A DNA stretch of 64,000 nucleotides, taken from the NCBI GenBank assembly GCA_041690135.1, contig JAWLHY010000003.1:32001-96000 (forward strand), given 5' to 3'. A program made the translations under genes and the position numbers. The notes under the pieces are model-generated. The model did not search any database. It saw nothing but the letters and a program-made list of their open reading frames with translations, and was not told the origin of the DNA. Every line of letters starts with the position of its first letter. The first letter of the stretch is position 1. This DNA is from Armatimonadota bacterium. Lineage in GTDB: Bacteria; Armatimonadota; SYMT01. Below are positions 29,038-37,076 of the stretch, one piece after another.

Positions 29038-29174
29038 CCCCTCCCACGGCGCCATGCGCCAACCTTCAACCCCTGGCCCCCGCGGGGGGCTTCAACCTTC
29101 AACCTGCAACCTGCAAACCTTCCAACTTTGATCCCCTTATGGGGAACACGTACCGACCATTGGAGGATCCAAAG

Positions 29175-29534
29175 ATGCCTAAGCTGATGATCTCGCTCAC
29201 CTGCGCCAGGGACAATACGGACAAGGCTACCGTGGCCTTTGTCGTCGCCAACGCCTCCGTCGCGTCCGACGTGGAGACGGTGGTCTTCCTCAGCACCGAG
29301 GGCGTCCGCCTCGCACAGAAGGGGTACGCCGATGATATCCACGAAGAGGGCTTCAAGGCCCTGAAGGAGCTGATGGACGACTTCGCCGAGTTCGGCGGCA
29401 AGATCTACGTCTGCTCGCCCTGTTTCAAGAAGCGCGGCCTGGATGAGAACAACCTGGTGGAAGGCGCGGCCATCGTCGGTGGGGCCAAGGCGGTCGAGTT
29501 CCTGACCAGCGGCGCGAGCTGCATTAGCTATTGA
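29175..29534 (+). CDS. DsrE/DsrF-like protein
   Basis: VFLSTEGVRL, GKIYVCSPCFKKRG; GGAGG RBS. Confidence 0.9.
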   Translation: MPKLMISLTCARDNTDKATVAFVVANASVASDVETVVFLSTEGVRLAQKGYADDIHEEGFKALKELMDDFAEFGGKIYVCSPCFKKRGLDENNLVEGAAIVGGAKAVEFLTSGASCISY

Positions 29535-29540
29535 TCTTCC

Positions 29541-30833
29541 ATGAGTGAATCGATCGACGAACGAGATGCCTTCTCCGTCATCGGCATCACCCCGGACCGG
29601 GTGGTGGATGGCGGAGATCTCGACTGCGGGTCCGGCCTGCTGCTGATCATCCGGCGCGCCATGAACCAGCTCGAGCCAGGGCAGGTGTTGGAGGTGGACA
29701 GCACCGAGATCAGCGTGCGTGACGACCTGCCCGCCTGGTGCCGGATGACCCAGAACGAGTTCCTCACCGCGCTGGACGGGGGAGACCGGATCAAGTACCT
29801 GGTCCGGAAGGGCCCCGGCACGGGCGCCTGGGGCAAGCCGGACTGGGGCATCGAGCTGCCGCGGCGCACCGGCAACCGCCTGGACGTGCGGGACTGGCTG
29901 ACCGGCCGCGTGGGGGAGATCCCGCAGGAGGCGCCAACCTACTTCGGGTTCGTGCCGCGGGGAGCGGTGCCGGAGCCGGGCATGCCGGACTACGGCTTTG
30001 CCATCAACCACAAGGACGACGTGTGGGCGGACAACATTGGCGACCTGTACGAGCAGGCGAAGGCCGCCCAGTGGGACGCCTCCTCCGCCATCGCCTGGGA
30101 CCAGCTCCCCAAGCTGGATGAGGACGTGGAGCGGGCGGTCTGCCAGATCATGACGTTCCTGGCGGAGAACGAGTACTCGGCCCTTTACATCCCGAGCAAG
30201 TTCTTGCCGCAGATCAACCCGCAGTTCACGGAAGTGGTCCTCTTCCTGGCTACCGTGGTGAACGACGAGGCCCGTCACATCGAGGCGTTCACCAAGCGCG
30301 CCCTCGCCAATGGCGGCGGTCTCCAGTACGCGTCCGCGGCGACGGAGTGGTCCCTCTACAGCCTGCTGATCCAGGAAGACTACTTCAACTCCAGCTTCCT
30401 GCTCCATGTGCTAGGGGAGGGGACCTTCCTCGACCTGCTGCGGTTCTGCGAGGAGTTCGCGCCGGATCCCGTGACGAAAGATGTCGTTCGGCGCGCTCGC
30501 CAGGACGAGGCACGGCACGTGGCTTACGGCGTGGCGCACCTGAAGCACCAGCTCCAGCAGCACCCGGAGAACATGAACCGGCTGTTGGAAGCCGTGGAGT
30601 CCCGCGCGGATGCCATCGCGGCGACCTCCGGCACCACCCCCTTCGTGATGGAAGCGCTGGCCGTACTGGCCGGCGGCGGTGCCTCGCCGAAGCAGATGTC
30701 CGCCGGGGTGGAGAAGGTGAAGGAGCTGTACCGGACCATGGACCAGAACCGCACGCAGCGCCTGGTCCAGGCCGGGGTTTCTCTCGATCTCGCCCGTAAG
30801 ATGAGCGAGATGCACACGCCGAATTTCATGTAA
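29541..30833 (+). CDS. TusA/SirA domain fused to ferritin-like diiron domain
   Basis: N-terminal DGGDLDCG..LEPGQVL..DLPAWC; diiron ligands E(YSA)...DEARH...E(GTF)...DEARH. Confidence 0.85.
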   Translation: MSESIDERDAFSVIGITPDRVVDGGDLDCGSGLLLIIRRAMNQLEPGQVLEVDSTEISVRDDLPAWCRMTQNEFLTALDGGDRIKYLVRKGPGTGAWGKPDWGIELPRRTGNRLDVRDWLTGRVGEIPQEAPTYFGFVPRGAVPEPGMPDYGFAINHKDDVWADNIGDLYEQAKAAQWDASSAIAWDQLPKLDEDVERAVCQIMTFLAENEYSALYIPSKFLPQINPQFTEVVLFLATVVNDEARHIEAFTKRALANGGGLQYASAATEWSLYSLLIQEDYFNSSFLLHVLGEGTFLDLLRFCEEFAPDPVTKDVVRRARQDEARHVAYGVAHLKHQLQQHPENMNRLLEAVESRADAIAATSGTTPFVMEALAVLAGGGASPKQMSAGVEKVKELYRTMDQNRTQRLVQAGVSLDLARKMSEMHTPNFM

Positions 30834-30986
30834 TTCAGGTGTTCAGGTAGTCAGGTGTTCAGGTAGTCAGGTGTTCAGGTGGTCAGGTAGTCAGGTGGTC
30901 AGGTAGTCAGGTGTTGAGGTAGTCAGGTGTTCAGGTGTTCAGGTAGACCGAACACCCGAACACCGAACACCCGAACACCGAACACC
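30834..30986. repeat. 14 x 8-bp (T/G)TCAGGT(G/A) array followed by complementary GAACACC(C) units
   Basis: Array 30834-30945, inverse units 30950-30986; fills the gap between two convergent stops. Confidence 0.9.
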
Positions 30987-32131
30987 TACTTCTTCGTTTC
31001 CATCGCCGGCCGGGTGCCGCCGCGCTTGCCGCCGAAGCGGTGCGTTACGCTCGCGATGATGGAGTAATCCGCGAACGTCGAGTCGCGCGGCACGCCGGGG
31101 ATCTGCGCCCGGATGTTGCGCTGGGTCACCACCGGGAAGGTGATGGAGAACACCGTGCGCCCTGTGGAGTAGAGTAGGCCGGGTTCCACGGCGATGCTAT
31201 AGCCGGGGCGTCGGAAACCCTCGGTCTTTCCGATGAAGTCTTCCGTCGGCACCCCTTCCAACCGGCCCGCCAGGATCACGTTGAGACCGCGGACGTCCGG
31301 CACCGGATGGCTCCAGCCGAGGCGGGCCACGTACTGGTCGGGCACGGTGTTGAACCGCTGGAACGCGGGCACGGCGCTGGGGCCGTTGGGGTTCAGGAAC
31401 GCCGGAGGCGACAGCGTGTTGTTTTGACCGCGCGGGTTCGCCAGGTAGACGCCGGAGAAGAACACCGTGCCCGTGCCCACCTGCCGGAACGCCTGCACGT
31501 CGAAGATGATCCCCCAGCCGCCGTCGCCGGGTTGGATGGAGGGGTCGAGAGGACGCAGTTGAGGGTTCTCGCCACGGCCGTTCGGGAAGCGGTCCATCGC
31601 GTTCGAGTTACCGGTTGGGGCTTTGAAACCGAACCCGAGCGAGATGTTATGCTGCATGTGCTCGTCGCAGTCAAGCAGCCACCGGCGTGCGACCAGGGAG
31701 ATATCTCCCAGGCCCTCGACGCTCTGGACGAAGCGCGGGCTCCCGGCCATGTTCGCCGGCAGGGCGCGGCTCGAACTGCCGTAGGTAATGTACGGCACGT
31801 TCAGCGTGAGGTTGAGCTGCCGGTTGAGGGCGTAGGTGCCGGTCAGGTCCAGGGTCTGCAGCTTGGAGATCACCTGGGTGCCGAGGTCGGTCACCGGCTG
31901 GCTCAGGCGGGTGCCCTGGTACTGCTCGTCCGCGCGGAAGGTGCGGAAGGTCGAGCCTACCTGCCACTCGCCTCTTTCAAGATAGGGTCCCAGATTGGCG
32001 CCAAACACGGGCGCACTTTGACGGGTGAGGATTCAACCCTGGGCCCAGGCGTGCCGGTTGGGGAGCAGGAGCCCGACCGTGGCGACGGTGCCGGCCAGGG
32101 CATAACGCATCCAGGAAGATTTGCTTTTCAT
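30986..32131 (-). CDS. Probable selenocysteine-containing outer-membrane (beta-barrel-like) protein
   Basis: ATG 32131 gives a signal peptide ending AWA-QG, then in-frame TGA (32033-32035) continuing into ORF 30986-32008 (GLGDISL, GFKAPTG, IQPGDGGWG, FRRPGY); hairpin downstream of TGA. Confidence 0.75.
31998..32014 (-). promoter_or_regulatory. SECIS-like hairpin
   Basis: GCGCC-CGUGUUU-GGCGC beginning 18 nt after the UGA. Confidence 0.5.
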
Positions 32132-32437
32132 TGGGAGCAACGCTGTGGATCGAAGGTGGGTCCCGGTAGAGATGACCGAGCTGGCCCCAGGGTAGGAAGA
32201 GATGGGGCTCTCCTAAACCCTACCTTGACCAGGCAAGCGCCGTCACCAGAATCTTCGATTCGACCAATGGAATTTTTCTATGACAGAGCATTCGGTTATC
32301 GGTCCTGGCTATCCGGCGTTGCTTTGCTTGGCCTCAAGCCCCGGTGCGGTGCCGAAGTGCGAAAGGTGGCATAGCACAGCGAACTCCGAGGGGGCTTTTG
32401 CGTCTATCAAAGCGAAGGCGGGAGCGGAGGTGAGCAG

Positions 32438-33838
32438 ATGCGCGGGAAGATCCGGGTTGGAGTACTGATGCTGCTGGGAGCGGGTCTCCTGGCGAGTGGC
32501 GGCAACCTCTGGGGTGCTGCACCCGCGAAGGGGGTCCCCGCGAGCCCGGCCGTCGAGCCCGAATATGTGCCGCGGCCCCGGGGGAGCTTGACCTTCAACC
32601 GGGAGATCGCGCCCGTTATCTTCCAGAACTGCTCCGGCTGCCACCGGCCGGGGGAGGTGGCGCCGTTCTCGCTGTTGACCTACGCGGACGTGCAGAAGCG
32701 TGCCCGGCAGATCGCCCTGGTTACCGAGCGGCGGCTGATGCCGCCCTGGAAGGCCGAGCCGAATGATCCGCCGCACGAGGACGTGATGCGCCTCACCGCG
32801 GATCAGATCGGCATGCTCAAGCAGTGGGCAGAAGAGGGCGCGAAGGAAGGGGATCCGACCGCTCGTCCCGCGCCGCCGAAGTTCACCCAGGGCTGGCGCC
32901 TGGGCGAGCCGGACCTGGTCCTCCAACCGGCCGAGGCCTACCAGCTCGAGGCAGAAGGGAAGGACGTCTACCGCAACTTCGTGATCCCCTCCAACTTCAC
33001 CGAGGACCGCTGGCTCTCCGCCATCGAAGTCCGGCCGGACAACCGGGTGGTGGTACACCACGCGCTGGTTTACTTCGATACCCGCGGTAAAGCGCGGGAG
33101 TTGGACGCCGCCCAGCCGGGACCCGGCTACTCAACTTTCGGGGGTATCGGCTTCTCACCCGGGGGTCAGCTCGGCGGTTGGGCACCTGGCAACTACCCGC
33201 GCCACCTTCCGGACGGCGTGGGCATGCACATCCCCAGGGGGGCGGATATCGTCCTCCAGGTGCATTATCACAGGAGCGGCAAGGTGGAGACCGATCGCAC
33301 CCGGCTCGGGCTGTACTTCTCGAAAAAGCCGGTGGATAAACAGCGACGGGTGCTGCCCCTCCTTGGCCGGCCCCTGCGCATCCCGGCCGGAGACGCGAAC
33401 TACACGGTGCGCGCCAGCATGACGGTGCCGCTCAACGCCACCCTGCTGGAAGTGATGCCGCACATGCACCTGCTGGGGAAGGAGATCTCCGTTACGGCCA
33501 CGCTGCCGGACGGCAAGCAGCTCTCGCTGGTGCGCATTCCGGACTGGGACTTCAACTGGCAGGCCACCTACGCCTTCCGGGAGCCGGTGAAACTGCCTCG
33601 GGGCACGAAGATCGAGCTGGTGGCGCGGTACGACAACTCGGCGAACAATCCCCGCAACCCCTCCAACCCGCCGCGCCTGGTCACCTGGGGCGAGGAAACC
33701 ACGGACGAGATGTGCATCGCCTTCCTGCACTACACCCTGGACCACGAGCGCGCTGCCCAACAGGGCCAACGCCCCGGTCTTCTCAGCGACCGTCTCTTGA
33801 ACCTATTCCAGCGCCTCCAGGACCTGGGCAAGAAATAA
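32438..33838 (+). CDS. Secreted c-type heme / copper type II ascorbate-dependent monooxygenase-like protein
   Basis: CSGCH heme motif; VVHHAL, QVHYH, PHMHLLG, WDFNWQ, TTDEMC. Confidence 0.85.
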   Translation: MRGKIRVGVLMLLGAGLLASGGNLWGAAPAKGVPASPAVEPEYVPRPRGSLTFNREIAPVIFQNCSGCHRPGEVAPFSLLTYADVQKRARQIALVTERRLMPPWKAEPNDPPHEDVMRLTADQIGMLKQWAEEGAKEGDPTARPAPPKFTQGWRLGEPDLVLQPAEAYQLEAEGKDVYRNFVIPSNFTEDRWLSAIEVRPDNRVVVHHALVYFDTRGKARELDAAQPGPGYSTFGGIGFSPGGQLGGWAPGNYPRHLPDGVGMHIPRGADIVLQVHYHRSGKVETDRTRLGLYFSKKPVDKQRRVLPLLGRPLRIPAGDANYTVRASMTVPLNATLLEVMPHMHLLGKEISVTATLPDGKQLSLVRIPDWDFNWQATYAFREPVKLPRGTKIELVARYDNSANNPRNPSNPPRLVTWGEETTDEMCIAFLHYTLDHERAAQQGQRPGLLSDRLLNLFQRLQDLGKK

Positions 33839-34598: not shown

Positions 34599-35447
34599 TC
34601 AGAGTCCCCCCCGCGGCCGCACGCGCACTGCCAATTCCTTACCCCGGCGCACCACCCGTAGTTCCGCGAGTTGCCCCGGCGCAACCTGGCCTGCGGCCTG
34701 GTGCAGGTCTTCCAGACTGTCTGTCCACCATCCGTCCAGTGTGGTGATCCGGTCCCCCACCTTCAGGCCGGCAGCGGCGGCGGCACCCCCCGGGTAGATG
34801 CGAGTGATCCGCATGCCGGGGTGATCGTCGGGACGGTCCACTTCCAGGCCCCAGAGGGCGGGCGATCCCAGGACTTTCCGCTGCGGGGCGGCCGTGAAGA
34901 GACGGGTCACGAGGCCAGACATCACGTCCTGTGGCTGGTAGTCGACGGGGGTGAGGGTCATCTTTCCCGCTTCGTAGTCGAGCACGGTGCGGTAGCGGGA
35001 GAAGAAGGAGTAGCCAATGATCCCGTCGATCTCCCCCTCGTAACGTGAAAGGACGTCGATGACGGGATGGTCCATTACCAGCAGGTTGAAGTTCCCCAGT
35101 TCCACCGCGCCCACGGCCAGCGTCTTCACCGCAAACTGGCCGCGCATGCCGAAGAAGGACGGCTGCTTCGCGCGCTCCGGCGTGATGAGCCCTGCCTTCA
35201 ACGCCGCCCGCCCGCTGATGAACGTCAGGGGAGAGCCCGTATCGAAGACCAGTCGGAAGGGACCGGCGCCGTTCACCTTGACGGAGACCAGGGCATGACG
35301 CGTCCGGGTGAGCTCCATCGGCACCGAAACGGCCACCGGCGCCGCGACCGGCTTCCCGGGCGGCTCATCCGCGCAGGAAGGCCGCGCACCGCCCAGCAGC
35401 CCACCGGCCAACACGACCGCCGCCCATACTCCGAAGTGCCTTCTCAT
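34599..35447 (-). CDS. Secreted retropepsin-like aspartyl protease with PDZ domain
   Basis: VFDTGS, DGIIG, AAAAGLKVGDRI. Confidence 0.88.
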   Translation of the reverse strand: MRRHFGVWAAVVLAGGLLGGARPSCADEPPGKPVAAPVAVSVPMELTRTRHALVSVKVNGAGPFRLVFDTGSPLTFISGRAALKAGLITPERAKQPSFFGMRGQFAVKTLAVGAVELGNFNLLVMDHPVIDVLSRYEGEIDGIIGYSFFSRYRTVLDYEAGKMTLTPVDYQPQDVMSGLVTRLFTAAPQRKVLGSPALWGLEVDRPDDHPGMRITRIYPGGAAAAAGLKVGDRITTLDGWWTDSLEDLHQAAGQVAPGQLAELRVVRRGKELAVRVRPRGGL

Positions 35448-35541
35448 TGTCTCCACACCTTGTCCAGCCACCCGTTCCAAGAACCCTGCCCCATCCTGAT
35501 CCTTATCCTAACCCGGCGTAGCCGGAACCCAGAGGAAGACG

Positions 35542-35949: not shown

Positions 35950-36903
35950 TCAAAACCCGTTCCCGGCCCGCACGACCACCGCCAGCTTCCGCTTGCCGCG
36001 GAGGACGGTCAGCCGGACCGCTTCGCCCGCCGCTACCTGGGTCGCCAGGGTCTGGAGCTCCTCGACGGACTTCACGGGCTGCGCCGTCTTGCCGAGGAGT
36101 GCCAGGTGCGTGATGCGGTCTCCGACGGCCAGCTTCGCGCGAGCGGCGGGGCTCTGCGGGAGGACCCGGGTAATCCGTGGGATGCCCGGCGCGGAAGCTA
36201 GTTCGAAGCCGAGGAAGCCACGGGCGACCTGTGGGATCTCGGCACGCTTGGGGACCAGCGTGCCGAGCAGTCCGGGCAGCTTCTCCATCGCCGCGAGTTC
36301 GGCCGGCGGCTCCCCGGGCGTCTCCGGTGGCGCGGAGTTGCCGGCGGGAGGCTTCGATGCGGGCGCTCCCGGTTCGGGGAGTTCCGTGATGGAGACTAAC
36401 GGCAGCGGCTGGTACTTCAGTGGCGTCCAGACCATCACCGGGCGAGTTAGGTCGATCTCCATCCGGAACCGGGCAATCAGGTTATAGCCGAGAACACCGT
36501 CCAGCCGCGCGCCGGGAAGTCCCACCAGGTTCATGCCGGTCAACTGCGGTGGCTCCTGGACGCGTGCCTCCTGCTTCTCGACGACCGCGCCCCCTTCGAT
36601 CTCCAGGCGCTTCACCGTGGCCCAGCCTTCCTCATCCGCCTTCAGCCCCGCCTTCTTCGCGGCCTCCGGAGAGATGAAGAGCGCCGGCGCCCCGGTATCC
36701 AGGATGAAGTTGAAGGGACCTTTCCCGTGCAATTTCGCACGGACCAGGAGATGCTTGGTCGCCGTCAGCCGGTAGGGCACCCGGTAGGTGCGGCCCGGAG
36801 GGGAAGGTGCCGGGGTTGCCGGCACCGCCGGAACCGGGGGAGCCGCGCCCACGGGCAAACCGAGCGCGAGAAACAGGTAAAGGGTGGAGGATAGCTGTCG
36901 CAT
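35950..36903 (-). CDS. Second secreted aspartyl protease with PDZ domain
   Basis: ILDTGA, DGVLG, SPAARAKLAVGDRI. Confidence 0.88.
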   Translation of the reverse strand: MRQLSSTLYLFLALGLPVGAAPPVPAVPATPAPSPPGRTYRVPYRLTATKHLLVRAKLHGKGPFNFILDTGAPALFISPEAAKKAGLKADEEGWATVKRLEIEGGAVVEKQEARVQEPPQLTGMNLVGLPGARLDGVLGYNLIARFRMEIDLTRPVMVWTPLKYQPLPLVSITELPEPGAPASKPPAGNSAPPETPGEPPAELAAMEKLPGLLGTLVPKRAEIPQVARGFLGFELASAPGIPRITRVLPQSPAARAKLAVGDRITHLALLGKTAQPVKSVEELQTLATQVAAGEAVRLTVLRGKRKLAVVVRAGNGF

Positions 36904-37076
36904 AGAATGGGATGGGAGTAGAAGGCTCATCTGCAGTGTAGCGCGCCCGACGCCGGTTGGCCGATACCCACGTGCGCTCCGCGCAGAGCCGCCGTAGAAC
37001 TCGCCCTCCTAAGGATACGGTTACCAGGGTGTGGAATGATCGACAGAGTTTCAGCGAGGGCAGGGAGGGTGGCGGC

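Follow-up and report, generated by a model that had tools for sequence, protein, structure and literature searches.

A predicted outer-membrane beta-barrel protein from an Armatimonadota bacterium with a probable selenocysteine at the third residue of its mature chain

RESULTS

An in-frame UGA codon lies close to the N terminus of a predicted exported protein

A gene on the reverse strand of a 64,000-nucleotide stretch of an Armatimonadota genome (positions 32,001 to 96,000 of contig JAWLHY010000003.1, GenBank assembly GCA_041690135.1; this whole stretch is referred to here as the window) very probably encodes a real outer-membrane selenoprotein, in which selenocysteine (Sec) would be residue 3 of the mature chain (Q-G-U). 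We reached this conclusion by sequence comparison, because the in-frame UGA of the gene aligns with an invariant Cys, because it is followed by a covarying hairpin of the selenocysteine insertion sequence (SECIS) type, and because the genome holds a complete Sec machinery; in addition, the same arrangement recurs in a paralog and in dozens of other species. The gene thus represents a predicted selenoprotein family that is unrecognized and widespread and that carries its Sec in an unusual place.

Read-through translation of the 381-residue frame (32131..30986, reverse strand) gave a single in-frame TGA, at codon 33. The precursor begins MKSKSSWMRYALAGTVATVGLLLPNRHAWA|QG-U-ILTRQ, where the bar marks the predicted cleavage site, and with the TGA read through the product sequence begins MKSKSSWMRYALAGTVATVGLLLPNRHAWA|QG-U-ILTRQSAPVFGANLGPYLERGEW. 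Translation thereby reproduced both the coordinates and the N-terminal reading (…RHAWA|QG-U-ILTRQ) of the initial annotation, which had been made from the letters of the window. That annotation had also pointed out that the listed open reading frame (ORF) lacks an export signal and that reading through the TGA supplies one, and this was borne out: the ORF called under translation table 11 (30986..32008) is 340 amino acids long, starts with a GTG that lies downstream of the TGA, and is devoid of a signal peptide, and read-through adds one that ends in AWA. The features of the gene are collected in Table 1.

The UGA codon aligns with an invariant Cys of full-length homologs

A search of a 5.8-billion-protein collection returned 1516 relatives at E ≤ 0.001, of which 119 listed relatives were inspected, the window's own entry being excluded. 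A signal peptide followed by QGC was present in 59 of the 119, as the initial annotation had stated for homologs, and the remaining 60 began a few residues downstream of the QG_ position (MLGAQ..., VLIRQ..., MVNRQ...). These downstream starts appear to be the signature of calls truncated at an unrecognized stop. The database entry for the window protein itself (P0002) is the truncated 340-amino-acid form, and two entries sourced from NCBI, P0009 ("hypothetical protein") and P0118 ("transporter"), begin just past the TGA position. Two alignments of full-length sequences (25 and 56) showed the Q, the G, the C, and an Arg four residues later to be invariant; no His, Met, or further Cys was invariant elsewhere in the barrel protein.

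At the DNA level, scanning of species-representative genomes yielded 80 loci from at least 461 relative stretches. The N-terminal search pattern admitted only Cys or a stop codon at the QG_ codon, and the raw codon counts (54/28/13) still included duplicates and chance pattern hits. Removal of the duplicates and of one chance hit (L073 at 6021) left 85 distinct loci; L067, L068, L093, and L103 gave no N-terminal pattern match and fall outside this number, and the match at L033 is a fragment. The 85 loci span six or more phyla, and their QG_ codon was TGA in 48 and TGC or TGT in 37, with an in-frame signal peptide and the QG intact before the TGA in all 48. The pairing of Cys with TGA that the initial annotation had proposed to look for was therefore present, at the exact codon and in many lineages. 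Trp or another residue, which would have spoken against Sec, was found at this position in none of the 85 loci, an absence that is partly built in because the pattern took only Cys or stop.

TGA forms occurred in Armatimonadota, Acidobacteriota, Planctomycetota, Gammaproteobacteria, and Verrucomicrobiota, and the Bacteroidota members were Cys forms throughout; the family is common in soil Acidobacteriota. Carriers of the Cys form include cultured genera such as Flectobacillus and Chitinophaga (L062, L063, L075, L111). Among genomes of the same phylum as the window, 7 of 41 carried the family, with 12 matches in all, 9 of which contained one TGA, and this TGA was the QG_ codon wherever the DNA was read. 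On a quick maximum-likelihood tree (IQ-TREE, 85 rows, with the Sec/Cys residue left out), the Sec/Cys label required at least 8 changes, compared to a mean of 27.9 when labels were shuffled, and none of 500 shuffles was as low. Recent switches were seen in the sister pair L035 (Cys) and L036 (Sec) and at L088, a Cys form within a Sec clade. The genome of the window itself (G000) holds a paralog at G000:C5:249876-250967 (L029, L114) with 55% identity; its TGA occupies the same codon, its signal peptide ends AAA|QG, and it has the same hairpin as the window gene. Three tandem paralogs in genome G002 (G002:C287:3086-6936; L028, L031, L032) have one TGA each, two of them confirmed at the QG_ codon, and the hairpin 3' of the TGA departs from the family consensus there.

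We considered the possibility that the TGA is a true stop, whether in a pseudogene, in a gene divided between a very short signal-peptide ORF and a barrel lacking an export signal, or through an assembly or sequencing error. Gene callers do treat the codon in this way, as the 340-residue entry P0002 and the 60 listed homologs that start just downstream attest. Nevertheless, the same codon is TGA in the 48 distinct loci, from several phyla and with signal peptide and QG preserved before it; a covarying hairpin follows it; the same feature is found in the paralog of the same genome; and metagenome contigs of two studies, described below, agree at the TGA. Moreover, an outer-membrane beta-barrel without a signal peptide cannot reach the outer membrane. 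A true stop is accordingly regarded as extremely improbable.

The predicted cleavage site was equally regular across the family. The residue before the Q was A, G, or S in 84 of the 85 loci, the residue at −3 was small or aliphatic in 81, and the residue at −2 was mostly bulky (W in 29 loci, F in 17). This pattern is that of classical signal peptidase I, which makes Q the predicted residue 1 and Sec or Cys residue 3, and for the window protein cleavage by signal peptidase I after AWA is predicted to yield the mature N terminus Q-G-U. Alternatively, the Cys or Sec could be the lipidated +1 residue of a lipoprotein that signal peptidase II cleaves before C/U, since the G at −1 and the A at −3 of the Cys resemble part of a lipobox (consensus [LVI][ASTVI][GAS]C). 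However, the invariant Gln at −2 of the Cys is a mismatch to the lipobox, a polar c-region of 6 to 7 residues, some of them charged, lies between the hydrophobic core and the Cys, and the small-residue rule at −1 and −3 fits cleavage before the Q, so that lipidation at this residue can be given very little credence.

A SECIS-type hairpin follows the UGA and covaries among relatives

The initial annotation had reported a hairpin after the UGA, and one was present. In the window gene the distance from the UGA to the loop is 23 nucleotides, and the hairpin folded alone has a free energy of −8.1 kcal/mol. According to the accessible text of a 2026 review, bacterial SECIS elements have a loop of 3 to 9 nucleotides, a stem of 4 to 16 bp, a G at loop position 1 or 2, a UGA-to-loop distance of 16 to 37 nucleotides, and a minimum free energy of ≤ −7.5 kcal/mol (PMC13188914). 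The window hairpin falls within all of these published limits, with the loop G at position 2 followed by U. A consensus of (N)GCGCC-CGUGNUN-GGCGC(N), with a stem of 5 to 7 bp, was found 3' of the UGA in nearly all TGA members.

The helix was also examined for covariation. For a 7-pair helix across the 48 TGA sequences, 92.0% of the cells were paired, compared to 83.2% in shuffled data and 22 to 50% when the helix was slid along the alignment. The covariation score was 0.245 versus 0.116 for shuffled data, and none of 500 shuffles reached 0.245. The basal pair of the helix varied among AU (14), CG (12), and GC (9), and inside the stem a compensatory change from G-C to A-U was seen at L070 and L074. 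In the 9.1-Mb genome, the pattern of UGA plus hairpin occurred at exactly two sites, which are the two paralogs, with no control hits. Furthermore, a gammaproteobacterial Cys form (TGC; L035:3031-3087) keeps the hairpin of its TGA-bearing sister L036, which suggests a recent change from Sec to Cys.

Several observations weigh against a hairpin that acts in Sec insertion. The 71 nucleotides around the UGA fold no better than shuffled sequences (z = −0.59); since the single-sequence fold is not significant, the case for the hairpin rests on comparison with relatives. Cys forms with A-P-I-I-G-A are likewise able to form a GC-rich stem, and three TGA-bearing sequences (L026 and two L028 copies) are without the consensus hairpin and are predicted to form other stems. 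Finally, the hairpin encodes a conserved peptide, A-P-V-F/L-G-A, so its conservation is partly at the protein level, and a constraint at the RNA level was therefore sought in codon usage. All 36 TGA members that have the A-P-x-x-G motif use GCG-CCC-GTG, and 35 of them use GGC; in Cys members with the same motif, the Pro codon was CCG in 5 of 6. By this comparison, the synonymous positions under the putative SECIS element are fixed in TGA forms only.

The genome encodes the Sec machinery, and independent reads agree at the TGA

Whether the genome can insert Sec had been posed as a check on the initial annotation, and all of the components named there were found. The genome (97% complete, 25 contigs) encodes selA (566.6 bits), selB (383.6 bits), selD (369.6 bits, with one internal TGA), and tRNA-Sec (67.2 bits), each above its curated cutoff. 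The tRNA-Sec adjoins selA and selD, and these three form a cluster at G000:C1:1149453-1152359 (L001, L003, L014). The selD product is itself of the selenoprotein type (CGG-U-ASK), and a hairpin with a GUG loop lies 3' of its UGA. In addition, selA was present in all five of the examined relatives that carry the family, four with a TGA form and one with a Cys form.

A further alternative is read-through of the UGA with an amino acid other than Sec, either by near-cognate insertion of Trp, Cys, or Arg or because the codon is reassigned in this lineage. Any read-through would account for the conservation of the frame upstream. On the other hand, TGA terminates 35 of the 71 open frames of at least 300 codons in the window, so there is no genome-wide reassignment of TGA. 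Homologs with a sense codon at this position have Cys there (with a pattern that admitted only Cys or stop), the Sec machinery is complete, and the SECIS-type hairpin has constrained synonymous positions in TGA forms only. We judge decoding by another amino acid to be most unlikely and retain Sec as the predicted residue.

Parts of the gene were present in two soil-metagenome DNA runs from different studies. One contig was identical across the TGA, and the run from which it came may be the source sample of the window. The other was approximately 91% identical (18 differences in 210 nucleotides), with the TGA and the hairpin unchanged and with different flanks. A sequencing error, which the initial annotation had listed among the ways to be wrong, is argued against by these contigs of two studies, which have the same letters at the TGA. 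The listed sequencing runs included no RNA run, only these two soil DNA runs, in which the gene had a small share.

The protein is predicted to be a 12-stranded barrel of the COG4313/FapF class

Family models gave little indication of the fold. The Pfam match to PF13557 was below threshold (17.2 bits against a gathering threshold of 22; E = 0.0056), and a scan of NCBIfam gave noise-level matches only, such as NF058560 (FapF) at 21 bits against a cutoff of 700. AlphaFold2 models of the precursor and of the mature chain, built from 72 and 56 aligned sequences, had mean predicted local distance difference test (pLDDT) values of 89.7 and 90.6, respectively. The best structural match was PDB 4RL8 (Pput2725; Z = 23.1, root mean square deviation of 2.7 Å, 256 of 268 residues), followed by FapF (Z = 21.0) and autotransporter beta-domains (Z of approximately 18); Foldseek agreed (FapF, E of approximately 1e-12). 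The protein is thus predicted from these models to be an outer-membrane beta-barrel with 12 strands, in the COG4313/FapF structural class, which is in keeping with the beta-barrel-like outer-membrane protein of the initial annotation.

Pput2725 of Pseudomonas putida F1 belongs to COG4313/PF13557 (Phenol_MetA_deg). Its 12-stranded barrel is superposable on that of the window protein, both proteins have a conserved segment before strand 1, and some homologs of the window protein carry precomputed PF13557 matches. In the accessible text of the paper on Pput2725, the 14 residues at the N terminus are described as entering the barrel from the periplasmic side and folding within its lumen, and two other COG4313 proteins have an N terminus about twice as long (PMC4493636). 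In contrast to Pput2725, the pre-barrel segment of the window family has 24 residues and begins with the invariant Q-G-C/U, and the word "cysteine" does not occur in that text (PMC4493636). FapF (PDB 5O65/5O67) is also a 12-stranded barrel, with a Foldseek template-modeling score of approximately 0.7 on the target; unlike FapF, the window protein lacks a coiled-coil N-terminal domain, and there were no fap genes among the scanned neighbors of the window gene.

The initial annotation had further suggested a Sec in an N-terminal plug. The lumen segment of Pput2725 favors this by analogy, but mature residues 1 to 11 were below a pLDDT of 50 in both AlphaFold2 models, including that of the mature chain alone. 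The alignment to 4RL8 spans from model residue 7, a range that gives end points only. AlphaFold2 does not place mature residues 1 to 11, and the Sec could be located inside the lumen or be mobile in the periplasm.

Table 1. Positions in the window of the barrel gene and of its parts
Feature	Position	Strand	Details
Whole gene	30986..32131	-	381 codons plus TAG stop; one TGA read through
TAG stop codon of the barrel gene	30986..30988	-	
12-stranded beta-barrel domain (predicted), precursor residues 55-367	31031..31969	-	AlphaFold2 model and fold matches
Conserved mature N-terminal segment, mature residues 1-24 (QGUILTRQSAPVFGANLGPYLERGEW)	31970..32041	-	Precedes the first barrel strand
SECIS-like hairpin	31998..32014	-	5-bp stem GCGCC/GGCGC, 7-nucleotide loop CGUGUUU (32009..32003)
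TGA codon 33, predicted selenocysteine, mature residue 3	32033..32035	-	Aligns with invariant Cys
Signal peptide (predicted), residues 1-30	32042..32131	-	n-region K/K/R, hydrophobic core, c-region PNRHAWA

Possible roles of the N-terminal Sec or Cys

In the mechanism that we propose, SelB and Sec-tRNA would decode the UGA at codon 33, when the nascent chain is approximately 32 residues long, and the precursor would be exported via the general secretory (Sec) pathway, processed by cleavage after AWA, and integrated into the outer membrane. The conserved N-terminal segment of 24 residues would then face the periplasm or, as in Pput2725, be tucked inside the barrel lumen; lying in or below the lumen, it would bring the selenolate into the channel or to its mouth. 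The lone Sec or Cys would serve as a redox-active nucleophile that captures covalently, or reduces, oxidized, electrophilic, or thiophilic cargo in transit, with a transient selenenylsulfide or covalent adduct to the cargo as intermediate, and thioredoxin-fold reductases of the periplasm would reset the Sec to the selenol. We advance this redox role, with resetting by thioredoxin-fold partners, tentatively, as the most likely of those considered, although it may well prove wrong.

Four lines of evidence led to this proposal, namely fusions to thioredoxin domains, downstream redoxin genes, a difference in second Cys residues between Sec and Cys forms, and the Sec/Cys switches on the tree. First, a C-terminal thioredoxin domain was found in 4 of the 119 listed homologs, and both of the fusions inspected, P0070 and P0090, have a reductase-type WCGPC site. 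In an even-stranded barrel both termini face the periplasm, and the fused C-terminal domains would therefore be located beside the N-terminal Q-G-C. A search for longer fused relatives, of 668 to 2000 amino acids, is weak evidence and gave none. Second, an AhpC/TSA-Redoxin gene lay directly downstream in 5 of 89 loci. Third, a second Cys within 20 residues was present in 30 of 37 Cys forms, mostly at +8 or +9, compared to 7 of 48 Sec forms; this contrast matches the pattern of Sec enzymes that dispense with a resolving Cys. Fourth, the label changed at least eight times.

Other results argue in the opposite direction. The links to thioredoxins and redoxins cover only a minority of the members, and the contrast in second Cys has phylogeny as a confounder, the Bacteroidota being Cys forms without exception. 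No partner gene was universal across the 89 loci, whose neighborhoods were heterogeneous in a clustering that was noisy from spurious antisense ORFs in GC-rich DNA and included artifact clusters (e.g., L022:1819-2886). Lastly, an HMA metal-binding domain in one homolog (P0112) favors a different role, binding of a metal.

This second role, which the initial annotation had suggested for a site in the plug, presupposes the same selenoprotein with its N-terminal Sec or Cys as a ligand of soft metals (Cu(I), Hg(II), Cd, or Ag). The ligand may work together with the free amino terminus and the Q-G backbone amides, in the manner of an ATCUN-type X-X-Cys site, and gate a metal or hand it across the outer membrane. 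The Cys or Sec was exactly at position 3 from the predicted cleavage site in 85 of 85 loci, as a site at the amino terminus would need. No His, Met, or other Cys is invariant elsewhere, and a classical site made of several side chains is thus not evident. P0112, apparently a truncated call, has its HMA domain at the C terminus, with a GMTCDQC motif, and the divergent neighbor of the window gene (32438..33838), which has a signal peptide and a CSGCH (CxxCH) motif, ends in a copper type II monooxygenase C-terminal domain. TlpA-like redoxins, moreover, are known to keep copper-binding cysteines reduced. In opposition to metal binding, the HMA fusion is a single one among the 119 listed homologs, the copper-domain neighbor was not found beside the close ortholog L034, and an N-terminal Gln can cyclize to pyroglutamate, which blocks the amine. 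Redox cycling accounts better for the WCGPC thioredoxin fusions and for the missing second Cys of Sec forms. Metal binding is accordingly kept as the main rival role, though a less likely one, and the evidence leans slightly toward the redox or nucleophilic role instead.

A more specific form of the nucleophilic role would also involve the genes next to the barrel gene. Its convergent neighbors in the window are a DsrE-like gene (29139..29534) and a gene whose product joins a TusA domain (motif DCGSG) to a DUF455/ferritin-like domain (29541..30833); in a second Armatimonadota genome, the TusA/DUF455 fusion gene (L034:180-1484) likewise adjoins the ortholog of the barrel gene. By analogy with the sulfur carrier SoxY, which has a flexible arm that ends in a GGCGG-type motif, the protein might be a channel of the outer membrane equipped with a covalent carrier arm of its own, for elemental or oxidized chalcogens. 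As in SoxY, a flexible terminal arm in the periplasm would bear one invariant Cys with Gly next to it, which would suit a covalent carrier of sulfur species; unlike the arm of the window family, that of SoxY is C-terminal, and SoxY is soluble and has no barrel. Inside a COG4313-type channel for hydrophobic substrates, hydrophobic or oxidized chalcogen species (e.g., elemental sulfur or selenium, polysulfide, or adducts derived from selenite) would be attacked by the selenolate or thiolate. Bound as a perselenide or persulfide, the cargo would be drawn into the periplasm and released there by thioredoxin-fold partners, with the neighboring DsrE-like and TusA-domain proteins as the downstream relay. 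We regard this version as improbable and offer it as speculation. If it were true, the protein could be the long-postulated thiol-bearing outer-membrane protein that mobilizes elemental sulfur, or a dedicated route of selenium uptake; according to the 2026 review, no transport system that takes up selenium specifically and with high affinity has yet been identified in any prokaryote (PMC13188914).

Relation to known selenoproteins

The initial annotation had placed the protein outside the familiar redox selenoprotein families, and this held: Sec is predicted at position 3 of an outer-membrane channel and not in the usual thioredoxin-fold enzyme. Table 1 of the 2026 review contains 119 prokaryotic selenoprotein families, among them two predicted outer-membrane selenoproteins, NF041027 and NF049945, and no family with a PF13557/COG4313 domain or a Q-G-U N terminus (PMC13188914). 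NF041027 is the GSU2204 family, an MtrB/PioB-type barrel, and NF049945 is a TonB-dependent receptor with an FCYXU motif; like the window protein, both are exported outer-membrane barrels with a predicted Sec (PMC13188914). They differ from it in fold and in size, and their Sec is not at the mature N terminus. In the NCBIfam scan, the window protein matched none of the catalogued selenoprotein models at E ≤ 1, NF041027 and NF049945 included.

Our literature search found no report of a COG4313 member as a selenoprotein and no paper that links selenocysteine with COG4313/PF13557 or describes the family, with the limit that supplementary tables of large screens could list it as an unnamed candidate. 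Nothing relevant was found by a term search of BSepDB or in the accessible text of Haft's 2022 preprint.

Selenoproteins are systematically missed by gene callers, and about half of the listed family entries (60 of 119) appear to be truncated at the UGA codon. Recognition of the family would allow many annotations to be corrected and would add a selenoprotein located in the envelope to the selenoproteomes of soil bacteria. In addition, the frequency of switching between Sec and Cys (at least 8 changes in 85 rows) would make the family a tractable system in which to ask why Sec is used over Cys in the oxidizing periplasm.

Other features of the loci and of the window

The neighborhoods of the family in other phyla showed recurring elements. 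PAP2/vanadium-haloperoxidase-like genes were found beside Cys forms in 13 Bacteroidota loci and beside the family gene in one planctomycete locus. The Bacteroidota Cys forms at L062, L063, L069, L075, L078, L081, L085, L091, L094, L095, L099, and L110 lie in a conserved block with PAP2/vanadium-haloperoxidase-like proteins, which also contains a 182-amino-acid protein and a 332-amino-acid protein without Pfam hits, and the planctomycete TGA form at L037 has a DUF6851/VCPO/PAP2 neighbor. In Acidobacteriota loci, two-component systems and large outer-membrane barrels recurred nearby.

In the window, an array of 8-nucleotide tandem repeats (30835-30944; approximately 13.8 copies of TCAGGTGG-like units) lies between the TusA/DUF455 gene and the barrel gene. 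It is followed by approximately five copies of a near reverse-complement unit, CCGAACAC, at 30947-30986, which run into the stop codon of the barrel gene, and the two arrays together are able to form a long hairpin. A scan of 30700..32500 with Rfam gave no match to a SECIS family, and its only hits were chance miRNA-like matches over this intergenic hairpin (E of 0.037 to 0.95, far below gathering scores). Farther along the window, two paralogous genes (34599-35480 and 35950-36930) each encode a retropepsin-like aspartyl protease domain together with a PDZ domain.

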